DNA of 64,000 bases. It comes from Geosiphon pyriformis uo1. Lineage: Eukaryota > Fungi > Glomeromycota. The stretch is from NCBI GenBank assembly GCA_016748015.1, contig JAAOMT010000512.1, positions 1,088,719 through 1,152,718 of the forward strand, in the 5' to 3' direction. Below, one piece after another: positions 2,971 to 64,000 of the stretch (its first letter is position 1; the number at the start of each line of letters is the position of its first letter). The notes beneath the pieces were generated by a model. That model was not told the origin of the DNA, did not search any database, and saw only the letters and a list, made by a program, of their open reading frames with translations. The position numbers and the translations under genes are program-made.

Positions 2971-5402
2971 ATGGAGCAAATCGTATCAGAAAAAGATGAG
3001 TATCAAAAAGAACGAAACACTACTGAGGAGAGTGTACGTAATAGCACTGGTGCATCTAGTGAATCTACAATAATTGAAGTAGGAGGAAAAGAGAAAGATG
3101 CTTTCTTAATTAAAGTAGAGAATGGTATGACTACGACTCTTTTATTGTATTGGGATAATGGGAGATGGCGAAATAACTTATGCAAATTTGAATGACATAA
3201 AAGTTGGCCAACCGATTGGCTCATCTACTAACGTTCAAGGCGTGAGCCTGGCATGGCGAGATTTATCATACACAATCACAAAACCTAACAAGGAAAAGCA
3301 AAAAATCGTCGATAATGTCAGCGGTCTAGTGAGACCTGGTGAAGTAATGGCAAGTCAGTATAAAATGCCCAGTTTTTTCAACGCTCTTTTATTATCTAAT
3401 TTTTCCTTTTTTTACTTCAAATCGGATATAGTAATGGGACCATCGGGAGCCGGAAAATCCACATTACTCGACTTATTGGCTGGTCGAAAAGATCCCAAGT
3501 TAGTATCAGGCCAAATATTGTTGAATGGCCGGCCTGGTTATGTGAAATACGTTTCTACTTATGTTATGCAAGACGACGCTTTGATGGGTACGTTGTTCAA
3601 ATCTGTAAAGTTGCAATATGAACTTTGCCTAACAATTTTATCTTAAATTCCAGGAATATTAACTGTGCGCGAAAATATACAGTTTGCTGCGGATCTATGG
3701 TATCCATTAAAAGACCTCTTTTTTCGCTCAATTTTTATTTCGACGTGAAGAATCTTTTAAATATAATAATTTCACCTGACTGTGTCATCAATAGTTTTCC
3801 CGCCTTTTACACAGCTCAAGAGCGACGAAATCGTGTTGAAACAATCATTCAAGAGTTTGGACTAAGTCGAGTTGCTGACTCTAGAATCGGAACAATTTTT
3901 TTGAGGGGTGTCTCTGGGGGTGAGAAACGTCGTGCTTCGATTGCATCGCAAGTAATTACAGTACCAAAAATTATTTTCCTTGATGAACCAACAACTGGTC
4001 TTGATTCGGCTGCATCATATAATGTCATGAGCGCAATAATCAGCATGGCGAGAAAACATAAACTAACGGTTATCGCCAGTATTCATCAACCTTCGACTGA
4101 AACTTATTCGCTTTTCGACAAACTTTTTCTGATTGGCCGTGGTCGTACACTTTACACGGGCTCTAGAGAAGGAGCAATTCCCTACTTTGAAAGTTTAGGT
4201 CATGTCTGCCCACCATACTCAAATCCAGCTGACCATTTTCTTTATCTTATCAATTCTGATTTCATGGTTGATAAAATGGAAGCTAATACGCATATGACCA
4301 AATTTATTGAGGGATTTGAAACCTCACAAGTGAATGCTCAATTGCAACAAGAGATTAATGATTTGGTTCAAACACACAAATTAGATGATGATACTCGAGA
4401 AATCTCTGGGGACACAACGCAAAGATATGCACGTAATTTCTTGGCTCAGACTTGGATTATTTCAGTTCGTTGTTTTAAGAATTCGACGCGAAATGTTTTA
4501 GTGTTTTGGGTCAGGGTAGCCATGTATGTCGCTTTAGCATTACTAATGGGTTCAACATTTTGGAAAGTCGGTTTTGGACAAGACCAAATTCAAGAGCGCT
4601 TCTCCTCGCAATATTTCGGTGTGGCTTTCTTATCGTTTATGAGTGTTGCTGGAATACCAGCATTCCTAGAGGAACGAAATGTTTTCCAAAGAGAAAGAGC
4701 AAACGGGTTTTACTCTGTTGCACCCTACGTCCTGGCCAACACAATTATATCATTCCCTTTTATTTTTATAATTGCTCTATCATTCACCCTCGTTGCCTAT
4801 CCGACCATTGGCTACAATAGCGGTTTTAGTCACGCTGTCATATTTGTTCTTTTCCTTTTCCTCGTATTATCAGTTGCTGAATCCCTTGCAGTCTGTATCT
4901 CAGCCCTGATTCCCATTTTCGTGGCAGCTCTTGCAATTACCGCCTTCGCAAATGGGTTTTTTATGATATTTGCGGGTTACTTGGCACGGCCAGATGAGAT
5001 CCCAAATGGTTGGATATGGGCTCACTATATCTGTTATCAAAAATATGCATTCGAAGCAATTATACTAAATGATTTTAGGGATTTGAAGTTTGATTGTGAA
5101 AAATTATCAAAAAACAATGGAACCAAACTGTATAATTGTGTTTTTGGAGATAAATCAGGAAATTCGGCTCAATTCAGCGGTCGTGATGTGCTAGAAGAAC
5201 TAGGCTACCCCAATGCTCATCTTTGGCTTTGGGCGGTAAAAAATAATTATTTTCTCAATCTTGATTTCTCGCCTGAAATATAGAAATAATTCTGATTTTT
5301 AATTTTTAACCTTTCCCATTTCAGCTTATCCTTATTGGGATGATGGTGGTTTATCGCATGATTTTCTATTTTATACTTCGCATACGACGAGGTCGGCAAT
5401 AA
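2971..5402 (+). CDS. ABCG (White-family) half-transporter, NBD-TMD; 6 exons (paralogue 1)
   Basis: Spliced model: Walker A GPSGAGKST, Q-loop YVMQDD, signature VSGGEKRR, Walker B IIFLDEPTTGLD, H-loop SIHQP, then an ABC2 membrane domain. Last exon 5325-5402 (LILIGMMVVYRMIFYFILRIRRGRQ*). Confidence 0.93.
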
Positions 5403-6109
5403 ATTAACTTGGGTTTTTAGTATAATATTGTATATCACAGAAACACTGTTTTTGCTAGTGTACAAAATTTATGTAATTAACACCAATTTAGCACGGATAG
5501 AAGTTTAACTTTATGTAAAAACTTATTAAATTTAATACATCGTATTTAATCATTTCAAGGTTTTTCCAATAAAATTGCACATTGAAAAGAATGGGGATCC
5601 AATTCACGCTTCTTTGATTCAGATTTTAGTATCAATAATAAAATCAGAAGATTTACCTTTTATTATTATTTTTTAAAATCTAAAATATTAAAAAAAAGTC
5701 AACATAGCAAAAAAGGAGTTTTCACATTGTCAAAATTTGCTTTAAATATTTGATTGTGGTAATATTTGTAGAAAACATTCATAAAAAGGTACAAATATTT
5801 ATTTTTATTTAACATTACAAAGAATGATAAAAATATAATTAATGTTCTAATATAATCAAAAATAAAAGCATTTGGTGAAACCAAACAAAAATTACACTTT
5901 TATCCGTTAGTATATAAAATTATGTAATTTAATTAGGATATATTTAATTTAAACTTTATGGGTGATTGAATTACTCTTAGGAGTCCAAAAATAAACTTTA
6001 AAAAGACATTATTATTTGTTAAAAGTTCAAAAAGATTATTGTGAACTTCCAAAAACTATGTTAAATCGTTTTAATTTTACCCGATCTATGTAAAATCTCC
6101 ATACTATGA

Positions 6110-6600
6110 AAGATTTACGTCCACTTTTAACGGTTGCTCTTGTATGACATCATACACGAAATTTTCTATAAGAATCGATGCTTATGGAGATTCATCTGTC
6201 CAAAGTACACGTCGCCAATCCTTTGAATCCAATGCTTGTAGACTTTAGCTCAATTTAGCTGTTTGATTCAGTTTATTTCATTAATGATTGGTTTCTTACG
6301 CATTATATAGGATTTAAAGAAAGTTCTAATAGATATAGGATTTTGGATTATAGATGAGATTTCCGCAGTGAATAGGTTTTTTTGCATATTTCTTATGGCT
6401 GGTTTTTTGAGAATTTGACGTTCAGAACTTTTATCAATAGTAGAATTTTGATCACTATTATTTCTTTTTAAATGATCAGTATTTTTTATTAATTCTAATA
6501 TTTTAAGACAATTCTTAACGCAAGTAGTGGACCGTCCAATAATACGGCCAATTTTTTGCGATAGATATCTCTTTTTTGAGCATTTTATCGAATAACATTC
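6110..6600 (-). mobile_element. Degenerate Tc1/mariner transposase remnant
   Basis: Minus-strand translation with stops and frameshifts: KIGRIIGRSTTCVKNCL (HTH), RKKPIINEIN*IKQLN*AK..HW, KDWRRVLWTDESP (first catalytic Asp), TVKSGRKSFIVW. Confidence 0.8.
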
Positions 6601-8389
6601 GTTTTCATAAGATATTTTGGCTACTCATTTGTTTATACATTTCGAATTTTCAAGTCCATTAACTAAATAAAAAATGAAACAAAAATGAATCTCTTTTATT
6701 ATTATAAGTGCAATTTTAAGGTTTTTAGTATTACGGCAATCTTTTAAAATTCTTTACGGTCATGAGAAAATCCTCCTAATCTGCATATTTGTCTATTCAC
6801 AGTTAGCTCCCCTCCCAAAAGTCATTGATCTAATAATAGTAAATAATCTTTAAATATCTAATTTTAGTTTTTTTGATCCAGTTCAAATTGTTTTCTTTTC
6901 CATATGGGGATAAATTGTCCCTTCTAAATAAAGGAAAAACATGATTTCAATAGAAATGTTTATTCATTTCTCGTTTTGGAGCTTTTTTAGTTTGAATGGC
7001 AATTGAATATTTCCCAAATTGTATTAATTGAATAAAATTTTTGTTCACATCAGCCTGAATTTAGTTTATAATTAAGACGTCCAGTACATTCTTTATTTTT
7101 TGATATTCATAGGACCGAAGATATGTTTAAATTTTCTTAGGCAGCAACTTCTCAGGTCGAATATCCTATAATGATATTTTTTTCAAGTGAAAATCAATAA
7201 AGTTGGGATTTAAGAATAACTAATTAAAAAAAGTCTTTGAAAAAAAATTAAAATTCCAATTATTTTTTTATTTGTGAGAAATTGGTCATAGTAATTAGAT
7301 TGAAAAAATTTGATTTATTTTAAAGCTTCTAATCATTCATGAAAATTTTAATTGTCCTAAACACTATACAATAATCCAATTGGTAATTATCAATCACTTT
7401 TGTTAGGTTTATTTCCAACGATGAGATTGCGAATTTTTTTTTTAGACTGTAAACTTTTCCCTATAAAAATTTACTGTTTAACACAAGTTAAATTATGTAT
7501 ATCTAAAAAATCATCGCCAAAAGGTTTAAGCATTAACATTAATTAAATATAATTCTTCAACTATATCAAATCCGAAAACTTTATAGTTTTAAAATCTTTG
7601 GTACGATAAATATTTGCCATTTTCAAATGAGTTTCAACCATTCCATAACTTGTTCTTAATAGCGATAGGGACAGCTTAAGTTAATATATTTTGTAAAAAT
7701 AATTAAAGTGTCATAGTATAATAAAATGTTCTTAATTTGTACAAGGGATTGTTTACTGAAAGGAATTCATGAGCCTGATTTTTTTTTCTCCCAGGAATGT
7801 GATGAAGAGTTCTATAGACAAAATATATATGTGCACCCACACTGCATCTGCCAACTGCAATGTTATGAACTCTATTTTTGCGAGAATTCACGGTAAAAAT
7901 TCAATACGGTATTTCATTGAACAGCACACTTTTTGACTTTTTCGTAAAAGATTTGCATCTGTAATGTATAGATACTAACCCACCCCCTACAATACCATAA
8001 TCAATAAATGTGGCTAGGCTAGATTTGAAATTTGAATTCGTTTATTATTATTAACCAATTTACATATCTTTAAATGAAAAAAATTTATAGCACGCCCTAA
8101 GCTAAGTAAAGACTGACATAAAATTATAAAGGATAAAGGTCGAGCGAAGTGAATATTAGCGGGAATGTTGTGTTCTGTAAAAGTTTTTTTGTGGTTCGGC
8201 GTGAATTTAGAGATTATTTAATTGTGGGACGAAAATCTTACCCTTACATTAAATAAAGATGTCCAAAGATTTCTTATAAAAACAGCAACTCAAGTTTACC
8301 TTCCTTTCTCTGCCATTTCTGGTCCATGCCAACGTCTTCTTAATCTGAAAAGATTTTTCTTCAAAAGACAAAATAAATAGATAATAATT

Positions 8390-10876
8390 ATGGAAAAAAC
8401 CTTTGTTTTGTCAAATGATTCTCAGGAGGATACGAGTGACCTTAATGTTGAAGGCATAACGAGCCATTCGAGACTTAGTTCAGAAAAGACTTCCATTACA
8501 TGTACAGATCTCGAGAAACAATGCACAAAAGAAAAATTGATTTCAGTAGCAATTGATGACGGTAAAAATCCGTTTTATAATGAGCTAGAATTTATTTCGA
8601 GCATGAAAGATTGGATATACGTACTAAATAAGAGATTTTTCAACAAATAAAAGATGACGATTTTTATTTCACATCCCGCAAAAGTGTCAGTCTTGCTTGG
8701 AAGAATCTTTCATACACAATTACTAACTCAAGAAATAAAAAAGAAGATAAAATTATTCAATGCATGAGCGGTATAGTCAACCCAGGAGAATTCTTGGCAA
8801 GTCAGTAGATATAACAAATTTTCCCATACTGAACCTTGAGTCCTTAACCCTACATTACTCAATTTTTTATTCCTATTTTTAGTTTTGGGTCCTTCTGGTT
8901 CTGGTAAAACAACATTATTGGATTTATTATCAGGTCGCAAAGATCCAAAGCTAGTTTCAGGGGAAGTACTTTTGAATGGGAGACATGGTAATATCAAATA
9001 TGTATCAAAATATGTGATGCAAGACGACCAAATGATAGGTATACAATAACTTTTTGAATTTGAATTGAAATATTTTTTTGCTCAAGCTATTTTTATATCT
9101 TTTAAGGAGTTTTGACCGTTCGTGAAAATATTGAGTATGCTGCAGAGTTCTGGTATGCATTATTTGGCTTTTTAATTTTCTGCAACTCGCAATATTTTAC
9201 TGTAACTCATTTTCACAATCAAATTTTTCATCGAAACAGTCTTCCCACTTCATATAGCGCTGCGCAAAAAATGAAACGTGTTAATGACATTATTCAAGAA
9301 TTTGGATTGGAACGTGTCGCAAATTCTAAAATTGGAAATGTCTTTGTACGTGGAGTATCCGGCGGTGAAAAACGGCGAGCTTCAATAGCCTCACAAGTGA
9401 TTACATTACCAAGTATGATATTTCTCGACGAACCAACTACTGGTCTTGATTCAGCAGCTTCATATAATGTCATGAAGGCGATCGTTGGAATGGCACGAAA
9501 GTACAAACTTACAATTATCGCAAGCATTCATCAGCCATCTACCGAAACGTACTCACTTTTTGATAAAGTTGCTTTCATTGTTCGTGGTCGTACAGCATAC
9601 ATTGGCAGTCGGGAAGGGGCTATACCTCATTTCAATGAATTAGGCTATAAGTGTCCACCTTACTCCAATCCAGCTGATTATATCCTTTCTCTCATTAATT
9701 CGGATTTCATTACGGATAAATCGCAGGCCCAAACATATCTTACCAAATTTATAGATGGTTTCGAAATATCATCGACCAACCTTGAATTAGGAGAAAAGAT
9801 TAGCCAATTAATTGAATTTCATCAGAGTGATCACGACACTAGAGAGATTTCTTCAGAGACCAATAAACGATATGCTCGTTCTTTCTTCGCACAAACACAT
9901 ATAATAATGAGGCGGGCATTTATAAATGCACTGCGAAACGTGTTGATGTTTTGGACGCGGGTTATATTGTATTCTACCCTTGGATTAATGATGGGGTCAC
10001 TTTGGTGGAATATTGGATATGAACAGGAGCAAGTACTTGAGCGATTGGCTTCTCTATATTTTACTATTGCATTCTTGACTTTCATGAGTATTGCTGCTAT
10101 CCCTGGCTTTTTGGAGGAGAGAGCTGTGTTTGAGAGAGAACGCTTCAATGGTTTTTATTCTGTCGGTCCTTACGTCTTATCCACAAGTCTTGTTTGCATT
10201 CCTTTTCTGTCCCTCATCACAATTTGTTTCACATTCACCGTTTATCCCACAATATCTTATAATCATGATTTTTACCGTGCTCTTGATTATGTTATCATAA
10301 TATTTCTCGTTCTGATGATCTCGGAAGCTCTGGTTGTATTTATCGCTGCGATTATTCCAGAGTTCGTAGCTGCTCTCGGTATCACCTCATTTGTGAATGG
10401 GTTCTTCATGATATTCGCCGGTTTTCTTAAACTTTACAAAAACCTTCCAACCGCCTGGAAATGGGCCAATTATATCAATTATCAAAAATATGCTTTCGAG
10501 GCAATTATCAGCAATGACCTCAACGGTTTGACCTTCAAATGTGAAACACTGGATCTAGCAGTAATTGATCCAAGCGGTTCCCTCAGTTTGCTAGTTGGGA
10601 ACAACAATTATTACCACTGCAACTTTGGTGACAAATCTGGCCGATCAGAGTCATTTAGTGGATCAGATATTTTGAAGGATCTCAAGTGGGATGACATCAT
10701 ATATTGGCGATGGGTGGTAAGTGATTATTCTACTTTTTTTTTAAAATGGATTAGAACTTCTATTTGGTTGTGGTTATTTACATACGTTATATTCGCAGCT
10801 TATTTTGGTTGGATACGTTATTGCTTACCGTCTGGCTTTTTATGTATTACTCCGAATAAGAAGACTGCACATCTAA
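8390..10876 (+). CDS. ABCG half-transporter; 6 exons (paralogue 2)
   Basis: Walker A GPSGSGKTT, VSGGEKRR, MIFLDEPTTGLD, SIHQP. Intron positions match paralogue 1. Last exon 10799-10876 (LILVGYVIAYRLAFYVLLRIRRLHI*). Confidence 0.93.
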
Positions 10877-12023
10877 ACAGATAGGTTAATTAAAAGTCTT
10901 TTTATGGCATTGAGTTGGGACGTCTTGTCTTTGGCCGTGTGCATTTCTGCAACTAACTTCTGCCAAATAAAAAAAATCCATGATCTGTAATTTTAATATA
11001 GAAAAGCAATTAATCGTATTTAGATAATAAATTTAGTTTCCATAGATTCCCCTAAACTTTCAATCTACTGTTGCTTTTCCCAATATCTAAAATTGTTTTA
11101 GGAAGCTCTTAGGCTTGAAATCGCATACCTATCAATTTTAATAAAAATAACAAAAAATTGAGACGACGTGTATGTGAACTTTTCAAAATTCAAAGCTAAA
11201 AACTATATAACTTTGGAGAAGTATCTTTTCTTTCTTTATAAAATGGGAAGATTTCTCGGCGCCAATAGCTCGATCTATCGACTGAATTTATCAGTATTTA
11301 AGAAAAACCACAAATGAAACTACTTATTGTAGCAGTTTGAATCTAAGATAAGAATCCCGGCATGAAATTTTGAGACTAGCCAAAAAAAATAGGAACAAAA
11401 AAACCTCAATATTTTGAAAAAATTGAAGTCACTTATTTCCTTGGCAAAATATTATAAAGGACGTTAAAATCATTCCACCTTGTTTATTAAAAGTGAAGTT
11501 TATAGAAATAAAAATCATCAAAGAATGTCTTACTTGTAGAGTGTGAAAAATTTCACAAGTTGTTCAGCAACTGAAATTCTGCTTGTTCATAGATACTTCG
11601 AAAACGCTTTTGAAGATGTTATAAGCTTGTTAATTTGATTAATCTAGGTGGCCATTATATGAATAAGAACCATCCGATTTTCTAGAATACGATGAACATT
11701 GATCTTTTTAAGGGGATATTTTGGAACTTCAATGTGACTGAATGAACTTAGAGAATTTATGGTAAAAATCAGAATTTTACTTTCATATTAAATAATTATT
11801 TTAAAATTTTTAATCTTAAACCTTACTACAATGTGGGAATTAAAGTGGCAGACTTTAGAAGATGATTCTGCTTCGCCACACGAGTATCATGTGATAGGAA
11901 TCATGAGATAAATACATTTAAACCGTGCCGTTACATCATTATTATGTCTTTTTCTTGAAGATTTTCCTAAATTTTATGGGTCTCGTTATTTAAATAGAGT
12001 GATTAATTGCTCGATTTTTAAAA

Positions 12024-13353
12024 ATGGATGTAAGCCTTTCCATACAGATTCCACTCAAACGAAAGACAGAAACCGATAAGGCATTCTTCGAACGTGAAAA
12101 CATCGAGCTCGAAGCTTCATGGATGAGAAAGCAAGAAGCACTGAATGAGAATCATCCGGGAAATATTTCAGTATCAGAGGTCAAAAAAAACCCAAAAGGG
12201 GCAAGTGACATTAGTTTAATTGGATTTGATGATAGAGAGGAACTGCCAGATGAGCATTTTGAAAATTTCCTTAACAATGAGCCAAAAATGGGACCAAAAA
12301 AGTATTTTTTTAAATAAAAATTTCCTCAAGAATAGTAAATCAAAAAACTTGATTTACGGTATCTTTACCTGTTCTTTTTTACCATTGTTTGCAAAATGAA
12401 ATATCTTTCATTTTTTTATTTAAATTTATCCAAGGATTATCGTTTGCCATCTTCCCCCATGGTGCCAACGGCACCCTGTAGAATTTCCATCTATTGATGC
12501 TTATGAGATTCACTATAACAATTGTCACCGGTACATTTGTGATGAATGCGATGCTGTATTTCCCACTAAACGTTGGCTGGACATGCATTTGACAGAATTT
12601 CACGATGTGCTGGCACAGATTCGAAAGGAGAGAGGCGAGAAAATTGTAAGAAAGCCAGCCGTTTTGAGAAATTCTCCAAATCAGACACTAGATACTGATT
12701 TTCTCGTGTCAAATTCGATAGTTCGCTTGCTTTGTCCAAGGATGTGATCGCAATTTTGGAGAGTACGCCAAAAGAAATCGTCATTTGATCGATAAACATG
12801 ACTATGCGACAAATTATAACTTTGCCATTGTGAAGTTTGGGGTGGTACCTGTAAGCGTGCGTAAAGTAAATGATGTCATTAAGAAAAAGAAAATGTGAGT
12901 TTTCTATTATGATATCTCACTTCTTTTAGGTCATATCGATTTACCATTTCATTGATGTTTAAATCACATAATAGGGAAAAGAAAAAACGAAATAAACAGG
13001 AAAAGAACCAGTCATCTTTTGCTGAAACTTTAGATGGCTCAACCCCTATTGAGCTCAACAGCCAAGTTGCTTTGGACACTATAGTGCCACAGGAGCCTGA
13101 CGACATAGATATGTTGATTGAATCAATGGATAAATTAAGCCTACCCACTTCAATCAAATTTGGCCGTGAATCACAGCGTACACGATTACCATTTGGGCTC
13201 GCTAGCTTTGGTCATTCAAAAGCGTCCTTCCCTAAATCTAAGAAAGCAGGAGCAAAGAAAATAAATAAATTTTCAATGGATATTGAGATAGAGGCAAAAA
13301 ACTTGGAGGAAATTGAAAATTTTAAGGTTGAAAGCTCAGGACAAAATATCTGA
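12024..13353 (+). CDS. ZNF511: ZNF511-like C2H2 zinc-finger protein (multi-exon)
   Basis: Exons at about 12435-12645 and 12722-12850 encode CHLPPWC..EFPSIDAYEIHYTNCHRYICDECDAVFPTKRWLDMHLTEFHD and FACFVQGCDRNF...RNRHLIDKHDY..NYNF, the ZNF511 finger arrangement. N-terminal motif LKRK...AFFE. C-terminal motif LPTSIKFGR. Confidence 0.78.
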
Positions 13354-13558
13354 TATTAAAATGGATTGATAATTATGCGCCCCAAGCTGGAATAGGAACT
13401 TACCAGATGTTTTTGATTTGAATCATGAAATATTTTCGAGCTCTGTTTGATTTTTTTTTTCTCAGATTATCAAAAAAGCCTATTTGTCAAAATTTGATTT
13501 TTTGAAATTAGAAAATCTGTACATACATGGCCACTCGTTAATTAGCAGATAAAAGCAC

Positions 13559-15939
13559 TATAATATTAAAAAATGGGAAAACAAAACATTCTCATTAAAT
13601 AATTTTGTTAACAGTTTCAAGTTTTTTATCAAAATAAAATCTAAAGCAGTCTTTTATTAAAAGTTAGAACTTTTTAAACCTTTTTCAAGATATTTTATTG
13701 CTCGTACAAAAAATTCCAAAAAACAAAGTTGCAGTTTTTTTATGTTGCAATGCTATAAAAAAAAATTATTTTTATTTACGAATATAAAAATACAAGTTAT
13801 ATAAAATTATAAATCAATTACTTTTATTGGAATTTTATCAAGTTTACTTTAATCTGTATAGCTTAAACAAATACAATTTTTTTGGTATTGGTTAAAATGT
13901 GATTATTTGATAATATTATTATTTTGTAATTGTTTTAATTGTTTTATTTTTACATAAGTTTTGTTTCAAATAAGAATTAAGATAAAAAAATTTTATTATG
14001 ATTATATTTAACAACAATAATAATAACAAACAATATTAGCAATAATAAATAATATAATAATAATACTTAAAATTAATTTAAAATTTATTTATTTAATTAT
14101 TATAATAATTATTATGTTTTTTAAAACACCATAATCCAAAAAAAATTGTGATATATTGAATATAAAAACAAAATTATAATTAGTTATAATCACTTTTTTA
14201 TTAAAAATTATAATTAATTCAAAATTTTTAAATAATAAAAATAACATATTAAATTATTTATTTAGCATATTATATATTAATTTTTAATAAATATGTTAAA
14301 CCAATTTTTTAATTACTTAAATTTAATTATTGTCAAATATATTATTGTTATTTTTGAATTCTAAAAAGCTGGTAATGCTGCTTTTAGCAAAATTGGTGTT
14401 TTAAAAAAGAGTTGTATTTAATAAAAAACTCTGGATGTTAATATTACTATAAAAGTTAAAGTTTAAATTATTGGGTTTTTTCTTTAAAGCTGCTTTTTTT
14501 AATTTAATTAAAATATTTTGAAGTCTTTTATTGTGTTCAAAAGAGTATTTAATAAAATTAATTTTTTGAAATCTAATATAAAAACTTTAGTTTGTTTAAA
14601 ATTAATAATAGAATTTATTAATGTTTTAATAATTTAAGTTTTTTTAATAACTAATAAAAACAAATTTAACACAATATTATTAATTAAAAAAAATATATAT
14701 TTTTATTTTTTATTATTAAATTTCAAATTTAGATAAATTTTAAACCACAAAATTAATAAACAATTAAAATTAATCTTTAAAAGATTTATATTTAGTAAAA
14801 TTAGAATTTTAAATATTCAAATCAAATTTTAAACTTTTAATTAAACTGAAATTTTAATAATTCAAAAATAATAACTTATAAAACTAGTGTAAAATTAGAA
14901 AGATTAAAAATATTAATTAAATTAAATTATAAAAAAGTAATTTGAATTGGTTGTAGCTTTGAACAAGATAGTTTTAATACAAAAGTCAAAAACATATTTC
15001 TTTAATATATAAAAAATATGGTTAATACATATACATAATATACACAATAATAAATATATTACAAATAGAAAATTTTTGTAGAAAAGTTTAATTTGCACAT
15101 AATTAATATTATAAAATTTTAAAACAACAATTAAAAAAAAATTCTACATTTTTTTACAAAACGGAAATTATATTTTATAATACAAATATTTATTTTGTAT
15201 TCAGTAAGCAAACAGAAAATATCTAAAAAAAATAGAAAGCTAGTTTTTTTTGAAAACTCAAATCAAGGTTTTGGCAAATTAATGTTTGTATGTTTAAAAA
15301 TATTCTGCATTTAAAAAAAGTATGGTAAGCTTCTTTTAAATAATAATAAAATAAACAATAAAATTATAATAATTCTATAAAATTTAATAATAAAAGAACT
15401 TTATTTAAATAAAGCAATAAAATAAAAAATAAAAGTTTTATTTAATTATCAAAAACTAATTTATAATATTTATATTTTTTATATTAAAGCTTATTATATA
15501 AATACTAAAGTTAATATAAATAATTAATATTTATTTTATTAATATTACGGCTGTTTATAAATGTATATACACAAAGATTTGAAATATAAAACATTTGATT
15601 TTTTACTCTCAGTTTTATTTTTGAGAATTTGTCATTTTTATAATATTGAATCAAAACAAAAATTTGCATTATGTTTTTTTGATTGTTTTAATCGTTTTTG
15701 AAAAGTAATTTATTTTTGTAATTGTCAGCCGAACATAAACAACCTTATTCTTTTGCATAAATTGCTGTGACTACTTTTTGTTTCCATATCTGTAAAAAAA
15801 TAAAGTTGTTTGTAGAAATTTTAATAAAAATCACATGATTTTAAATAACCAATTGTTATAATGTTTTTTTTTAATTATGTACTAATCTGCAGTTTGTTTA
15901 AAAAGCAGGGTTTTTCAGGATTTTTTTGAAAACACTGTA
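13559..15939. mobile_element. Extremely AT-rich, heavily decayed transposon relic (possible Tc1/mariner-type ends)
   Basis: About 2.4 kb with very few C or G and no ORF. The right end aacactgta (15931-15939, reverse complement tacagtgtt) matches the left tataatatt (13559-13567) if C>T and G>A changes are allowed. Boundaries are tentative. Confidence 0.35.
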
Positions 15940-16528
15940 ATGATAAGTCTTGTTTAACTAACAAGCTGAAGCCAATAATTAAACTTGACAGCTAAAAAAT
16001 ATTTTTATTTATGTTCAAATAATGCGGTTCATAAACTAGATTAATGATTCCCAAAATATTCGGCTAATTATAGCTTTAATAAGAAAAAGCATTCAAAGAA
16101 ACCAACGATCTATCTGAAAAGTTTTTCAAGAGTTGTTAATATATGCTTCATTAATTTCTTTTTTCGAGTTTTAAGAGTTCATAATTCATAAAATAGTTGT
16201 TAAGAGCCACATTTCTTAGTATTATGCATGAATTTCGAGTTTTAGATAATGAATGCTAAGGATAAATCTCTCGAAACAATTTCCAGACTTTGAAATATAG
16301 AGATTATTGAAGAGATTTCATATATATCGGGAAACAAAAGCTTTTTTAATAAAATTTATTTTTTTACATTAAACATTACAAAAATTAAAAAGTTATTCTG
16401 TTATACAACAATAAATATATAGGAAATTCTACTGGGTTTAAAAATATGTATTATGATTCCAGTCTATAATTTGAAATCAAATATTTTTTTACACTTAACG
16501 CTAGGAGATTTTATTGATTCTCTTATGA

Positions 16529-18916
16529 CTAAATGCGAACCTTTCGAATTCGAAGTGCTAAGTAAAAGGCGAATCGGTAGAAGATAATCATTGCAATCAA
16601 GACAAGCTACAATGAAAGATTCAAAAGAAAATGATCAGTATTTGTCATTCTGCAATTTAAAATTTATATTTGCAATTTAAGAAAATTTATACTTACTATC
16701 CAAGCCCATTGTTTTGTTTCTGAGTACCCACTTTCATCCAAAACCTGACGGCCAGTAAAAGTTGATGCGAACCCATCCTTGTTTCCATAATTACAACTAT
16801 ATCGATTGTTTCCATAACTCTCTGGCAATTTTTCACAATTAAATGTCAGGTTTGCAATGTCATTTTCAATCATAGCCTCGAACGCGTACTTCTGGTAGCA
16901 AATATAATGTGCCCATTTCCAACCCTGTGGAATGTTATCGGGCTTAACGAGATATCCCGCCATTACCATGAAAAATCCATTCGTAAATGCAGTAATTGCC
17001 AAAGAAGCTACAAAGATCGGAATAATTGCCGCGATAAATACGACCAAAGCTTCGGCAACCAGTAAGCAAAGCCACATGTAGATGGCGTACAATACAGCGT
17101 GTTCGAACCCACTGTGATAACCTACTGTAGGATATACGACGATTGTGTATGCAGTGGCAATAATTAAGAGGAAAGGAATCGAAACCAAGGAATTTGCCAA
17201 GGCGTATGATCCAACAGAATAAAATCCATTAGCTCTTTCTCGTTGAAATACATTTCGTTCTTCCAAGAAACCAGGAACTCCGGCGACACTCATGAAAGAT
17301 AAGAAAGCAATAGAAAAATATTCGGATGTAAGTCTTTCAGTTAGTCGCTCTTGATCGGATCCAATTTTCCACCATGTTGTACCTATCAATAAACCAAGAC
17401 CCACATACATAGCTAATCGAACCCAAAACAGTAAAATGTTTCTTATGGCATTTTTGAAAGAACGCGAAAGAAGGATTCGGGTCTGTTGAAAAAAGTTACG
17501 CGAGTAACGTTTTGTTGTGTCTCCAGAAATTCTACGTGTATCTTCGTCTAATTTATGATATTCAATTAGTTCTTTTATGTTTTCTGTTAACTCCTTGCTG
17601 GCTTCTGATTGCTCAAAAGCGGTTATGAATTTGGTAATATACTCTTGAGCTTCAGCTTTATCGGTCATGAAATCCGAATTGACCAAGGAAATGAAATGAT
17701 CGGCCGGATTGGAATAGGGTGGACATACGTGGCCTAACTTTTCAAAATGTTGGATTGCTCCTTCTCGGGTGCCAGTGTATAAAGTTCGACCCCGGCCAAT
17801 TAAAAATAAACTGTCGAAAAGTGAGTAAGTTTCTGTCGACGGTTGATGGATGCTGGCTATGACTGTCAGCTTATATCTTCTTGCCATACTAACGATGGCT
17901 TTCATAACGTTGTATGACGCGGCTGAATCTAAACCAGTTGTAGGCTCGTCAAGAAAAATGATTTTGGGCAATGTGATTACTTGTGATGCAATTGATGCAC
18001 GACGTTTTTCACCTCCCGAGACACCCCGAACAAACACAGTTCCAATTTTGGAGTCAGCTACTCGATCTAATCCAAACTCTTGAATAATACCCTGGACTCG
18101 TACTCTTCTTTCCTGAGGAGTATATGAACTGGGAAAGCTGGTTTTTGAGAAATAAGTGGTTTAAGGTTAATAAAGATGAATTTCAGGGTTTCAAGCATCT
18201 TATTTGGATTGAGGTAGTAATATTAGAAAGATTCTTACCATAAATCAGCAGCAAATTGAATGTTTTCTCGAACAGTCAGGACTCCCATTAAAGCATCGTC
18301 CTGCATTACATAAGTTGAGACATATTTGACTTCACCGGGTCTTCCGTTTAATAAAATTTGGCCAGAGACAGCTTTCGGATCTTTTCGACCGGCCAGCAAA
18401 TCTAACAATGTTGATTTTCCGGCACCTGAAGGACCCATTACTATAAGATAATTTTTAGAAATTATTAAATTGACGCGTCAAGCTGCCATAATAATCTCAA
18501 TTGTGGTCAAAAAAAGAAATTGATCATAAATTAGGTTCTACTTACTTGCCATCACTTCACCAGGTTTAACTATTCCACTCACACCCTCGATAATATTTTG
18601 CTTTTCTTTTGTCTTTGAGTTTGTAATAGTGTAGGACAAGTTTTGCCAGGTTAAACTGACGCTGTCTAAACTTCCTGACATGCTTGTAACCTCGGAGTTT
18701 AAATCTAAGAAAAAGCAATGGTTGGTTTTACTCAAATATAAGGAATCTTCACAAAAACTAACCCATACCATCTTGAATATTGAGAGAAACTGCTTTTATA
18801 GATTTTTCTTCTCCGTCAATGAAGCTACTATCCAAGGTGGTTGTTGCGCTAACTTCTATTGAAGCTTGGGTTTGATCCTCACGTGGTTTTAAAGTTGATT
18901 GAAATAAATGTTCCAT
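16529..18916 (-). CDS. ABCG half-transporter; 6 exons (paralogue 3)
   Basis: ATG at 18916 (MEHLFQSTLKP...). GPSGAGKST, VSGGEKRR, IIFLDEPTTGLD, SIHQP. Same intron layout as paralogues 1 and 2. Last exon LVLIAMIIFYRFAFYLALRIRKVRI*. Confidence 0.93.
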
Positions 18917-58476: not shown

Positions 58477-58715
58477 GATACACATTTGGGAGTAAACAGC
58501 AAACACAGCAAGATTTGTTTATTACATTTATTGTGAAATCCTGAATAATAATCTTTATGACAATAAAATAATAACCAAACACACCTTCATTAATGTGTGT
58601 GATGACTTCTAAAAAAAATTCCATGTCATGTTCTGCCATGGTCATCATATAGTCAGGGCCTCAATCCTATTGAGAGTATTTGGGCTGTTTTGAAACAAAA
58701 AATCAAAAAAATTTT
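58477..58715 (+). mobile_element. Tc1/mariner transposase C-terminal remnant
   Basis: YCEILNNNLYDN...TKHT...VLPWSSYSQGLNPIESIWAVLKQKIKK (a WPxxSPDLNPIExxW variant), with stops. Confidence 0.75.
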
Positions 58716-60363
58716 CGCAGCCTGCTCATATTCAAGCCATGACACTATACTTAATATTAATTCGGTATTAAGGTATCTTGTTCAAAAAAATTGTATAATC
58801 CGAAAAAAATTGTTTACCATTACCTTCCACCCTCATCAGCATTTATCTTCACTATCGGAACGTGATGTTTCTGTTGTTCTTATATATATATTCAATGATA
58901 GCTGTGACAATATTTGGCCTGATCTGTTGTGGCTAAAATGGCTTTTTATTAATAAAATTTATTATTACATAAACCCATACGCTAATATCAACAACTTTGT
59001 GATGCGCGTACCATTCTGAAATTAATTTGCAGAATTCACGATTAGGCATTATGAACCAATTTGTCATTAACCTTGAAAAAATGATCTCAGTCCACAGCAG
59101 AGAATCTCAAAATAAAAAGTGTATTTGATCGTCTTTATTCACTTCTTAAAATTCTTTGGCATTGTTCCAGTTGAATTGTTCGGTGTTAATAGCAAGAAAT
59201 GCGTGCAGCTCAAAATAGATTAAAAATACCCTTGTTCTATCTTGACTGCCGCATACAAGTTAAATAAACGCTACACAAAACTTTTTCCATTCTTTTTGGC
59301 TCTTTGTATTTCCTATTTATTTATTTTAATGAATGAGATCAGATTTTGATTATGAAACGTCAAACAGACGTTATGTTTTTAGTTTAAGAGCACATTATAA
59401 AGACATTTTATTAAGATTTGAAGTAATTTTTAATTCTTCTTGAGAAAGCAACAAAGAAAGTTTATAGGTGTTGAAAGGTGCAAAATATATCTGTTCTGGT
59501 GATATGTAAAAGTTTTTTTTAGAAGCAAGGATTTATAATAAGTCTAATTAATGAGATAATATTTGTACTGGGCATCTTGATCCCTCGGATCAGCAGCATT
59601 TTCCAAGTCTAGACTTCATGAAATTCTTTTTTATCGTATTAATCAATTGCTTCATTCAAATTTTATGGTCCTAGTTTTTATTCCCACCGTCGAATAGGCA
59701 TTCAAAGGAATCATGCATATATATAGTTTTGGGCATTTTAACCCTGTTTTCAACTTCCCGTTGTTGGGGTTTCTCTGATACGTCATGGTTTTTGATATTA
59801 ATAGGCTATTTCTCAAAGAACAATTGCAAAAGTAAATTAAAAATAAAAGTTGAAACAGGAAAGTTGGATATAAACATGAAATCCAAATACATGCATATCC
59901 CAAATGATTAGATTTTTATAATGTTTGTAAAAATCTTATCAAATGCTTAAACTAAATAATATTTAATAAAAAAAATTGGCCTATATTTCAAAAAAGTTAA
60001 TACATATCTTAAAAGCTCCCTTTTTGATAAAAGATTAATATTTAATTAATTATCATTCGTCGAAATAAAAAATTACAGCACTTAGTTTATTGAATTTTCT
60101 GCAAAATATGTCAATGGATTTTTTCATACGAGTTTTTCCAAATTGCTGAAAAATTAATATATGGGTTTTCATAATAATGATTGGTTATAGAAACATATTT
60201 TGAAAATTATCAAGCATCATAAACCCTTTCAAAAATATATATTGAATATCTAATAAAAATAATTTATGAAGCTACCAAAATCAAGACAGAGTTTTTTAAA
60301 TAAGTTAAATGCTTAATTTAATTGAGACAAAAATTTATCTTGTCATAAACGTTGCAAACTGAG

Positions 60364-62597
60364 TTAAAACTCAGGCCCATAATTAAAGGTTGCTGGTAAA
60401 ACTTCATTATTCTCTTTGTTCCATGCGGTGGCTACAATCTCCTCCTCGTTAAATGTAAGCCCAAATTCAACAGCTCTATTTATTCCCAAATAGACATTGG
60501 GTAATCTTTCGAATATTAAAAGGAATATAATTACTTTTAGCAAATGTGGTACAAAAACAAAATACATTATTTAAATACCTCATCGTCATGCTACCAACGG
60601 ACTTCATACCAGCATCATCACAAAAACGACCGTTTTCTTTCGGGGTGTAATATACTTTGAACGTGATATATTGTTGATCAGCTCTTAATGGAGAATACAT
60701 CCCAGAAAATTTTTTATCGGCCGGTGCTGTCATTCCACGTGTGACTAAACGATCAAATTTCAAAATACGACCCTCCGGAGTTTTACGTTTATTTGGATCA
60801 ATTCCTTTTTGCCAAACTCTTGAGATTTGAATTCCATATGTATGTTTCAATATACGTGATTTCACCACTGCTTTATCAAGTCCCTAATGAATTTCATCGC
60901 AATTTATTAAAACAAGAAACGCCTCATATAATGAAATTAAGCTTTTGAAACTTACATAATGTACGGCACCATGTAAAATTGCAGTGATAGGGTTCAGTGG
61001 TACAGCTATTATTTTAACTTCCTGATTAAATATTTTTTTGATTCTTGCGATTAGATAGGGACTTTCGGCAAATCCTCCAACCATAAAAATTGCTGAGCAT
61101 TTATTCTCTCTATTGGCGTTGATTTGATTCCGAATCAATCTAATAATTTTATCTACAACTGGATCAAACATGGCCTTAATATCATCAAATTGAAGTTCAA
61201 CTATCCATTCATCTTCCTCCATTTGTTCCTTAACGTTAGTGGTGATGTATTGTTTTAAGGCTGGACAAGAGCGTTCGATATCAAGTTCGATTGGTCGAAA
61301 GGAAGAAGAATCATCTTTAAACTCGTATTTCACACGTTGACAAAAAAATTTATGAATTAAATATTGATATTGGCCATAATGTCTTTCTTTAAAGACTTTC
61401 ATTGCTTCGATGCCCAATCGTCGTCCAAGAAATAGAATAAATTCTGTGTCAACATAGGTACTACCACAAAGATCGCCAGTGCGCTCGGTAATTTCACCCA
61501 GTTGGTTTTCTGCCAACAATTTTCTCGTGGTTAAGTCAACTGTTCCTCCCCCACAGTCACAAACCATAAACGATGCTAATAATGATGCAAGAAAAATTGG
61601 CGTTTTAGCTAGCATACACTTCATTTTAATGTATTAATGATTCAAAAAACCAACCTCCAACGTCTAACCGATGTTCTTTTAAAACTCGCAAGCAAAAAAT
61701 AGCTGCTGCTTCGGCTGTTAACCAGGATAGCAAAATAGAAGTGTTTAGCTAAAAAAGAAAAATCAAAAATCACGTCTAATTAGAATAAGTCATTTTAAAA
61801 ATTTACGTTCTGAAGTAAATTCGAGATTGGTTGCATGCTTTGTGGCCAAGAAACCAGCCTTGAAGACACAATCCCGAAGTATTCCTTTAGTTCCAGGTGC
61901 CTATGCAAAAAAATAGCAATAATTTTGTTTAAAGTAAATTAGGCATATCTACAGAAATATAGAAACTAGTGGAAAGTTGTGATCTACCCATTCGGCTGGA
62001 ACAGTAAAGACAAACCGGACTTGAGGGAAAGTTATGCCAGGCCATCGTTTTTCCAGAGTTTCTTTTATCAACTTTATTAAAGCAACTCGAATAAATGTTA
62101 TATGATCTCATATAGTTATAAAATGATAGCAATTGTAAACCTTTTGCATTTCAGATAGGAAATCAGTGATTGCAGTCCTAAAATTTAAACCGATCGGCAT
62201 CTTTGGCTTTTTTTCCTCGCTCATGTCAGCCAAATGAAGTTTAAACAACTCAACGGGAGCAGGATCAATAGCGTTTCTATCTCTTCTGGATGGTTCTTTG
62301 GCTAGGGCCGCGAAGCCCCACGCATTCACTTTCCAATCGCTATCATATTGAAGAACCGTATTTGTTTTTGGAACGATTAGTCCCGGAAATGAATTGTGAA
62401 CCATGACATCAGGATTAATTCTGTGGCTATAAGCAAAACCTAAAAAAACCCAAGATATTTCTTTTAATGTTTATTCAGACACATAAAAAACTGTTGAAGA
62501 CTTCCGAAAAGGCATTCCTACCACTGCAAGTCGTGCCAAAATCAATGGCTACAACAACTCGAAAATCTTCAGAACTTTCTCTTGTAGGTATTTCCAT
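60364..62597 (-). CDS. HSPA12-like atypical Hsp70; 8 exons (copy 2)
   Basis: ATG at 62597 (MEIPTRESSEDFRVVVAIDFGTTCSG). Same exon/intron structure and intact ATPase motifs as copy 1. Ends VLPATFNYGPEF*. Confidence 0.92.
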
Positions 62598-62995
62598 TGC
62601 AAACCTAAGCAATTGTATTCACTAAACTCAAAGCTCTTATTTTTTCACAAAAAAGAATTTATGCAAAGTCCCAAGTAGAGAATGCCAAAGCTTTGGTCAA
62701 GAATGATCTTGGTCCAACCAATCTAGTTTGGTTTTTTGTACAAATATTACGTGTAGTTAAGAATTAATGAGCTAAGCTTAAAATGGCAATATTCGGTGTT
62801 GTTCTCACTGCCATCCTTATTTGTTCATCGGTTGCAAAAAACTTTCAAAACAAGTTTGATCCCAAAACTGAACAAAGAAAACGTTGCAGAATGACAATAG
62901 CAATCTTTTCGGCTTATTATTTTCCCAGTATTTAAAATTGAAGGTCGATTGTAACTACTAGTCAAAGGCTTTTTTCTTTCTTCACTTTCTTAACC
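62598..62995. promoter_or_regulatory. 398-bp divergent intergenic region (likely bidirectional promoter), copy 2
   Basis: Start codons at 62597 (-) and 62996 (+). Shares short conserved blocks with 39619-40113. Confidence 0.6.
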
Positions 62996-64000
62996 ATGCA
63001 CCTTCCCCAAGGACAACAAAAAAAAGATATGCCAGCCTCTAAAGAGACTCCACAAAATGCTCCACCTCCCCAACAGCAATCAAATTCGCTGATATCTCAA
63101 GAACTTCAAAAAATAATCAATTGGCTTTTAGCGCATGAAAATTGGGAAACGGATGTTTTGAAGTTCCTCTTACTTTGCATTGCAGAGCCAAAAGATAGTT
63201 GTTATAGATTTTTAATTGAAAGTGAATGGGGGGACATAAAAAACGCCATCAACTATTTCTCTTCAATGGGAATAACGAATTTAGACGCCAAAAATACTTG
63301 CATTGAATATTTGGATAGGTATAGAGATTGGCATAAAAATGAAACAAAAACTCCCATAAGTATACTTGTGGAAGATATTTGCGAATTTCTTCCTCTTGAG
63401 AAATCTGATGGAAAAACGCTCCTTAATTGCCTAGCTCGGGAGCGCCCTGAACCAAGATCAGCTCTTCGTTCAATTTTTTATCATAGGATCAAAGGAATGC
63501 ACGATATTTTGGTCGGCCAAAACTCTGACCTTATCGAACGAAACAAATCTAAAATGGAAATTAATTTTCTTCGAACAAATTACAAACTTCTTGATCAGGA
63601 GCTTCAAGGGTTAAAAAAACAGTTAGCATCTCACGATGAGGCAGAAAAGCTCAAAGAGCAAATAATAGCTGAACTGGAACAAAAGCTTTTATCACAAACG
63701 AAGCAGCATGAAGAGGAAGAGCAAAAGGAGCTAAGAATAGCTGAACTGGAACAAAAGCTTTTATCACAAACGGAGCAACATGAAGAGGAATATCAATCAA
63801 ATATGTCCAAGTTGAAGGAAGAATACGAAAATGGTAAACAAAATATTAATCAAGAGACTTGTGCACAATGTCAAAATTACTTCCAGCAACTACAACGTTT
63901 ACAAGAAGAAAGAGATATGTGGGAGATGAAGCATCAAAGTATGCAAAATGAAAGTACTTTCAAGGATAATCAAATCCAGAAACTTTCTAATCAGACCGAA
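62996..64000 (+). CDS. Coiled-coil partner protein copy 2 (5' part; truncated by the window end)
   Basis: Open frame from ATG 62996 (MHLPQGQQKKDMPASKETPQNAPPPQQQSNSLISQELQK...) to the window end, near-identical to 39618..38540 (-). Not in the supplied ORF track because no stop is reached. Carries 1.75 copies of the 24-aa repeat. Confidence 0.9.
   Translation, partial: MHLPQGQQKKDMPASKETPQNAPPPQQQSNSLISQELQKIINWLLAHENWETDVLKFLLLCIAEPKDSCYRFLIESEWGDIKNAINYFSSMGITNLDAKNTCIEYLDRYRDWHKNETKTPISILVEDICEFLPLEKSDGKTLLNCLARERPEPRSALRSIFYHRIKGMHDILVGQNSDLIERNKSKMEINFLRTNYKLLDQELQGLKKQLASHDEAEKLKEQIIAELEQKLLSQTKQHEEEEQKELRIAELEQKLLSQTEQHEEEYQSNMSKLKEEYENGKQNINQETCAQCQNYFQQLQRLQEERDMWEMKHQSMQNESTFKDNQIQKLSNQTE

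Follow-up and report, generated by a model that had tools for sequence, protein, structure and literature searches.

A local excess of amino acid replacements between partner genes of two head-to-head Hsp70-type gene pairs in Geosiphon pyriformis

Described counterparts of the gene pair

The closest described systems are DnaK-GrpE and mitochondrial Hsp70-GrpEL1 (PF00012 with PF01025; structures 1DKG, 4ANI and 9BLS), in which a long helix, a helical bundle and a small beta domain follow one another in the same order as in the model of the partner protein analysed here. The likeness extends to the adjoining position of the two genes and to the prediction that the partner touches both ATPase lobes. 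Unlike GrpE, however, the partner gives no PF01025 match, has a bundle larger by about 100 residues and carries an extra N-terminal domain along with variable repeats. The system also departs from DnaK-GrpE in that the Geosiphon-type ATPase appears to have no lid, in its many paralogous pairs per genome and in a fast divergence at the level of alleles.

With the HSPA12A/B-type Hsp70s our ATPase shares intact ATP-site motifs, a short C-terminal part without room for a lid and an expanded family. It is putatively HSPA12-type. According to the accessible part of a 2026 review (PMC13580251), HspA12A/B proteins have no lid and no known function and form an expanded family in bivalves; that part describes no linked partner for them, whereas one is present here. 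Some bacterial conflict loci carry HSP70 and GrpE genes (PMC7159879, accessible part): the GAP1-N2 GTPase systems place an Hsp70-GrpE pair, in some cases without the peptide-binding domain, in a predicted conflict locus. They are prokaryotic operons built on GTPase and FNIII proteins, none of which is seen at the Geosiphon pair.

Linked genes, divergent alleles and trans-species sharing are given as marks of allorecognition loci (PMC4540973, accessible part), and the fungal loci het-c/pin-c, un-24/het-6 and het-e of Neurospora resemble the present family in the first two of these features and, as a pattern seen with one sister species, in the third. They differ in that a Pfam search of the pair found no HET, NLR, HeLo or gasdermin domain, and the term "Hsp70" has no occurrence in PMC4540973, PMC12881547 and PMC10197012. 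The nearest named language-model clusters are MIEAP/SPATA18 (PF16026; similarity 0.86-0.89) and the C-terminal domain of plant GIL1/IRKI (PF24994; 0.79-0.82), where values below 0.9 are leads only and neither family has an HMM match to the partner; the MIEAP profile matched neither P0001 nor P0002, the database proteins of the two partners, and MIEAP is not among the families listed for their relatives. A literature search, with most subscription journals outside its scope, returned no paper describing this Hsp70-type/partner pair in its title or the start of its abstract.

Two head-to-head pairs in an inverted duplicate

The window, i.e. the whole 64,000-nt stretch of G. pyriformis DNA that was analysed, contains an inverted duplicate of about 3.6 kb (copy A, 37603-42363; copy B, 60364 to past 64000). 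Each copy is a head-to-head pair of an eight-exon gene for a 559-aa Hsp70-type ATPase and a partner open frame, 398-495 bp apart (Table 1). Partner B is intron-free within the window and continues past its end. Homologues of the partner N-terminal domain were found by profile search in a subset of the Glomeromycota relatives, and the domain has no Pfam match and no PDB sequence match. Partner A holds one more 72-bp repeat unit than partner B; over the compared part, this extra unit differs from the first one by two replacements and no silent change. In copy B the coil patch forms a CxxC motif (63860-63871) that copy A does not have.

Table 1. Coordinates in the window of the two gene pairs and of the partner segments discussed in the text.
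Feature	Position	Strand	Basis or content
Partner gene copy A, 671 aa	37603..39618	-	single open frame
C-terminal domain, partner A residues 361-650	37669..38538	-	helical bundle and small beta domain
Three 72-bp repeat units, partner A	38737..38952	-	
Variable patch, partner A codons 104-143	39190..39309	-	
Hsp70-type ATPase gene copy A, 559 aa, P0153	40114..42363	+	exon count of 8 from the alignment with copy B
Hsp70-type ATPase gene copy B, 559 aa, 8 exons, P0152	60364..62597	-	gene model, spliced contigs
Divergent intergenic region copy B, 398 bp	62598..62995	.	96/392 aligned bases unlike copy A
Partner gene copy B, codons 1-335 of 678	62996..64000	+	ORF, full protein P0002, X2 contigs
N-terminal helical domain, partner B, about residues 30-175	63083..63520	+	model, profile search
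Variable patch, partner B codons 104-143, predicted helices 4-6	63305..63424	+	9 codons with a replacement, none silent
Two 72-bp coiled-coil repeat units, partner B	63662..63805	+	
Coil patch, partner B codons 284-299	63845..63892	+	8 replacement and 1 silent in 16 codons

Copy B is expressed and spliced: all seven modelled introns of its Hsp70 gene are removed in contigs of runs X2 and X3. For intron 1 these contigs take an upstream donor, unlike the P0153 database model of Hsp70 A, which retains 10 extra residues of that intron (40190-40270). No copy A-specific contig is listed in X2 or X3, nor is any RNA data set listed for copy A, which is uninformative on expression since contigs lose rare variants. 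The database protein P0001 fuses partner A to a frame at 36661-37080 (- strand), a join that is probably a misannotation. That frame has no Pfam match and ends in a motif that we take to be that of Tc1/mariner transposases; a similar transposase-like remnant seems present on the - strand at about 58600-59000.

As a family, the Hsp70-type proteins match BiP, Hsc70 and DnaK in profile comparison (E 2e-7 to 4e-5), while P0152 alone scores below the Pfam cut-off. The phosphate and adenosine motifs of the ATP site are intact, and 75-89 of 89 rows keep them. The part of P0152 that comes after the ATPase domain is just 147 residues long, too short for a lid judging by length alone, and the ATPase is accordingly read here as putatively lidless. 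Further Hsp70-type paralogues matching 60364-62597 occur in run X1, and for a third paralogue on the scaffold, P0157, whose exon 6 is 83% identical, our searches returned no close partner.

The partner family comprises 233 representatives at E <= 0.001, and all 19 with a species name belong to Glomeromycota. Locus numbers are available for 19 partners, and in 10 of these cases an Hsp70-type gene is at most two numbers away on an equally long contig; linkage was read from the best 120 of 427 Hsp70 hits, so that the nine misses are uninformative. In 11 pairs the partner and Hsp70 trees are mostly congruent (Mantel rho 0.68, p 0.0002), as would follow from linkage alone. Genomes hold several paralogous pairs, and the paralogues predate speciation. 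One of the same best 120 Hsp70 hits, P0233, has the partner C domain in the same annotated protein, which may be an annotation join of head-to-head genes. N-terminal kinase, coiled-coil or other extensions on partners or Hsp70-type proteins (P0101, P0126, P0271, P0183, P0225, P0226) may be true fusions or annotation joins.

In the partner model seven helices occupy residues 30-175, a coil extends from there to around residue 352, and residues 360-620 make up a mixed domain. Folded alone, the C-terminal domain reaches a pLDDT of 93.6, and GrpE takes ranks 1, 4 and 5 when it is compared with 48,161 chains (Z 6.8, 5.8 and 5.6; rmsd 6.3, 6.5 and 4.7 over 132, 127 and 119 aligned residues, the whole domain being spanned). 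A Z below 8 may reflect a mere common arrangement, and ranks 1-5 are nearly level with unrelated chains. Other searches did not return GrpE: Foldseek gave no match to the C domain, the PF01025 profile had no hit in P0001 or P0002 at E up to 5, GrpE was absent from the 25 of 130 families listed for 83 relatives, and both a fold search with the whole partner model and a family profile against PDB sequences retrieved coiled coils only.

When Hsp70 B was modelled together with partner B residues 325-625, the complex scored 0.83, against 0.00 for the best of three controls; runs share at least 92% of contacts and the partner pLDDT is at least 83. Among microbial pairs, 51 of 78 solved ones and 2 of 108 mismatched ones attain the mark for such scores; among eukaryotic pairs the figures are 71 of 105 for solved ones (39 of 65 for those that lack a like complex) and 2 of 126 for unrelated ones. 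In the model both ATPase lobes are contacted by the beta domain and by the terminal part of the long helix, presumably the DnaK-GrpE arrangement, and because of this match the complex may pass by likeness to solved structures. The C-terminal domain is predicted to be GrpE-like and to bind its own ATPase, and the two proteins probably form a physical pair. Lying some 200 residues upstream of the modelled segment, the variable patch is outside the complex prediction.

Several other genes lie in the window. Copy A is flanked by paralogous kinase genes with Sel1/TPR tails (31862-34275, -; 44672-46969, +). Their N-terminal helical exons are 38% identical to each other and presumably resemble MLKL-type four-helix domains, a likeness to which neither Pfam nor PDB searches lend support. 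Three half-transporter paralogues (65-69% identical, one inverted), which we take to be ABCG-type, occupy 3131-18650, and the product encoded at 991-2223 combines a Ser/Gly-rich repeat of 30 bp with a CBM19 chitin-binding domain at its C-terminus.

Replacement and silent changes along the partner gene

A preliminary description of the window had reported 27 replacement against 2 silent codons between the two partner genes, from codon 20 of copy B (63053) to the window end, with all 15 changed codons before the repeat being replacements. Our recount gives exactly these figures, and no stop or frameshift occurs in the compared A/B frames. The two clusters it had pointed out also stand: 9 of 15 sites fall within 40 codons (p 0.011) and 8 of 27 within 16 codons (p 0.0003).

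Reads carry both versions. In DNA run X1, separate contigs of similar depth cover 39162-39338 (79.6 and 73.5; 10 differences) and 37726-38069 (65.4 and 81.8; 35 differences). The contig pairs, 40 of 94 table rows, span 10 of 16 N-domain differences and the whole of codons 452-625. Since the assembly may itself have been built from X1, this run shows the presence of both versions in the reads and does not extend to other isolates. Contigs of run X2 show no difference from partner B over 62938-63693 and 63743-64000. Past the window copy B is intact, encoding 678 aa (P0002); its DNA beyond 64000 is known only as difference positions in run contigs, which were scored against P0002.

Counted by nucleotide step, the part of the gene in the window gives 28 replacements to 3 silent changes, an AGA/AAG pair concealing one silent step. 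The binomial p is 0.11, 0.043 and 0.016 at kappa 1, 2 and 4. Pairwise GY94 returns an omega of 1.9-2.0 with p 0.04-0.06 at a fixed kappa of 2.5, chosen near the Hsp70 value of 2.8, and p 0.26-0.29 with kappa free, the latter because 22 of 31 changes are transversions. The excess beyond chance claimed in the preliminary description is confirmed in part: it does not hold for the window part with kappa free and is confined to codons 20-218, with 16 replacements and no silent change (p 0.013 with kappa free, 0.005 fixed; overall range 0.005-0.02), a value that becomes 0.07-0.17 after correction for eight segments. Patch codons 104-143 alone give 10:0 by step (p 0.06-0.10). The coil part (codons 219-335) is neutral-like at 12:3 (p 0.5-0.8), and positive selection on the coil patch finds no support in the codon model.

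Beyond the window edge the picture changes, with about 25 replacements to 21 silent changes. Codons 360-411 contribute about 2:4, where the four silent ones are six differences minus two amino acid changes, and in codons 452-625 there are 23 codons with a replacement and 14 with a silent change (by step 23:17, a ratio of 0.39-0.50). All scored partner codons, which leave out 412-451, amount to 53:24, a ratio of 0.59-0.77. This near-full-length value was the test set beforehand for a dN/dS above 1, and it falls below; positive selection on the whole gene is ruled out. The partner gene overall, its C-terminal domain and the ATPase (omega 0.52-0.54 between copies A and B, p 0.001-0.002) are under purifying selection. 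Codons 20-218 differ from the C-terminal domain (16:0 against 23:17; Fisher p 0.001). The longest run of replacements is unusual among shuffles of the 53:24 changes (p 0.017), and a neutral gene with 77 changes produces a run as long in 13-27% of simulations.

Transitions and transversions stand at 9:22 in the window part, which sets it apart from the C domain (26:14; p 0.004) and from Hsp70 (88:60; p 0.003). A diversity generator that mutates one base was considered and rejected, the list of changes having no such bias. At the predicted ATPase interface of the partner, 2 of 46 residues differ between copies (p 0.06). Changed N-domain sites do not have significantly lowered column conservation or hydrophobicity (p 0.84 and 0.39). 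Judged at informative columns, several N-domain changes seem derived on copy A, two of them at conserved columns (104 and 125).

Neutral-site divergence is far from even along the duplicate, swinging from 0 to about 25% (chi-square 134, 15 df, from rounded counts). Intron 2 (0/69) and partner codons 20-218 (zero silent) are at the low end; the intergenic region (96/392), intron 7 (18/72) and the 3′ exons of Hsp70 are at the high end. This patchwork of near-identical and 20-28% diverged tracts is probably explained by gene conversion between the inverted copies, with the tract containing codons 20-218 homogenised; mosaics of this kind arising from gene conversion are described in PMC3728101 (accessible part). 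The coil patch, with 9 differences in 48 bp, is likely an island spared by conversion. Patch 104-143 is a poor fit to such an old, shielded island because its 24-29 silent sites at 20-25% divergence predict 5-7 silent differences and none is found, making that origin unlikely. Its replacements look as if they arose after homogenisation.

The same patchwork feeds the strongest competing explanation, which we consider rather unlikely, though the most serious of those weighed here: recent conversion over codons 20-291, a loosely constrained N domain (more so in copy A) and a chance 16:0 run, singled out post hoc among transversion-rich mutations, in an otherwise ordinary dedicated chaperone module. 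Few silent changes are expected where transversions prevail, as only 12-15% of transversions in the partner gene are silent, and the corrected p values and an Hsp70 omega that is itself high point the same way. Relaxation of copy A stays as a rival because several changes seem derived on that copy, two of them at conserved columns. Relaxation would however give a ratio near 1, i.e. some 4-5 silent changes per 16 replacements and not 0, and the transversion excess is limited to the window part, as selection for replacements would yield. It also fails to predict that the same 40 residues are the most variable elsewhere, or that alleles cross species boundaries.

Variation in relatives and possible role of the pair

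Relatives were compared at the protein level, without silent rates, at two Rhizophagus irregularis loci and in two Funneliformis pairs, with the patch fixed beforehand from Geosiphon alone; such data locate variation, its cause being outside their reach. Pooled over four loci, 30 of 163 positions differ inside the homologous patch versus 33 of 420 outside (p 0.0003). Single pairs give p 0.012, 0.013, 0.14 and 0.23, three of the nine other comparisons listed are at p < 0.02 with six above, and enrichment is absent in three of the other comparisons (p 0.11-0.43). In a Funneliformis pair the partner N domain differs at 23 of 149 positions and the C domain at 6 of 283. A metagenome scan with P0008 found no locus.

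Locus identity in R. irregularis was established by partner and Hsp70 accessions being consecutive in each assembly. Between P0277 and P0309 the partner differs at 31 of 606 positions and the adjoining Hsp70 at 2 of 575 (p 1e-7), with similar variability in the C (17/286) and N (6/150) domains. Between P0277 and P0275 the figures are 67/606 (N 26/150, C 26/286) versus 24/573. Partner alleles thus diverge up to 15-fold more than the adjoining Hsp70. P0289, P0290 and P0291 are within 0-4 positions of P0277, and the alleles therefore fall into classes. The C domain of P0309 is only 1/286 away from R. diaphanus and 17/286 from the conspecific P0277; Hsp70 P0299 differs at 24/573 from P0163, whereas R. 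diaphanus differs at only 7/576. A pattern in which partner alleles cross the species boundary, judged from these proteins and one sister species, is present between R. irregularis and R. diaphanus. Raised allelic diversity, a property expected of allorecognition loci, is accordingly found at this relative at the protein level and with respect to its adjoining Hsp70. The allele pattern may also come from introgression or the drawing of species limits, or from a surface under loose constraint that drifts neutrally at a fast rate.

Two further observations concern R. irregularis. The N-terminal tail of P0275 is nearer to a paralogue about 50 genes away (P0284/P0292; 4-5/54) than that of P0277 is (8-9/46), a hint that conversion may act between loci there too. 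At the second locus P0284 and P0293 stop short of the beta domain and P0292 is complete, so that shortened alleles exist.

The preliminary description had proposed diversifying selection, as in immune or allorecognition genes, with the partner as the likely specificity determinant. Diversifying selection stands neither for the whole gene nor for the coil patch, and keeps its footing in the N-terminal domain and patch 104-143 through the data from relatives. The signal is genuine, though confined to one region and modest in statistical terms, and the alleles of relatives lend it support. We regard diversifying or balancing selection on patch 104-143 as somewhat more probable than its absence. 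Since the patch is also the most variable part in related mycorrhizal fungi, it is likely a recognition surface. Our best explanation, to which we give an even chance, is that of two head-to-head pairs in which the GrpE-like end of the partner grips a lidless ATPase and the N-terminal domain is a recognition module under diversifying selection. Gene conversion would reset silent divergence across codons 20-291 to near zero, and replacements in helices 4-6 would afterwards be favoured. The tip of the partner, at the far end of the long coiled coil, would meet a changing ligand (non-self or microbial), and the output would be the nucleotide state of the partner's own ATPase, governed by the GrpE-like end. 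Control of the nucleotide state is a prediction, and ligand sensing at the tip is inferred from the way the protein has evolved. A role of the pair in immunity or non-self recognition is tentative, falling a little short of an even bet, and the partner is a candidate specificity determinant of such a system; no Pfam cell-death, NLR or immune domain was found in the partner or in 40 longer partner relatives, two of which have a kinase.

Selection could also be real and merely fit the N domain of each copy to its own client or place in the cell, non-self recognition having no part in it, which we hold to be improbable. Several paralogous pairs per genome, older than speciation, would suit such client divergence, as would changes that avoid the predicted ATPase interface and the lack of a Pfam immune domain, but the divergent alleles of a single locus and their sharing with R. 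diaphanus are left unexplained. Very improbable is a local error-prone process, e.g. repair synthesis during conversion, laying down transversion-rich clusters that mimic selection: transversions make up 8 of 9 changes in the coil patch as well as most of those in the window part, and clustering is strong, yet no base is favoured among the changes, fourfold sites would be hit too, and the process would not strike one and the same stretch of the protein again in other genera. Errors of sequencing or assembly, or a pseudogenic copy B, can practically be discarded for the stretches that the X1 and X2 contigs cover, as the copy A letter found at 63099 and 63970 in two merged X1 contigs weighs little against equal-depth contigs for both versions, X2 contigs identical to copy B and an intact protein.

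On a wider scale, and doubtfully, we speculate that arbuscular mycorrhizal fungi may have built a family of two-gene receptors for non-self or immune sensing out of the Hsp70-GrpE exchange switch, in which a hypervariable tip would sense the ligand, a coiled coil would pass the signal on and a GrpE-like domain would switch a lidless ATPase, with alleles under balancing selection and reshuffled by conversion between paralogues. If chance and conversion were instead the true explanation, the locus would illustrate how a window edge together with gene conversion can imitate positive selection on a whole gene. The accessible part of a 2025 review (PMC12712441) presents somatic compatibility in arbuscular mycorrhizal fungi as a trait whose molecular basis is unresolved. 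A linked partner predicted to bind, a local variable patch and the allele classes in laboratory strains of R. irregularis make questions of somatic compatibility and of HspA12 function testable, and should the receptor reading be true, these loci would be candidates for the somatic-incompatibility or endobacterium-sensing genes of Glomeromycota.
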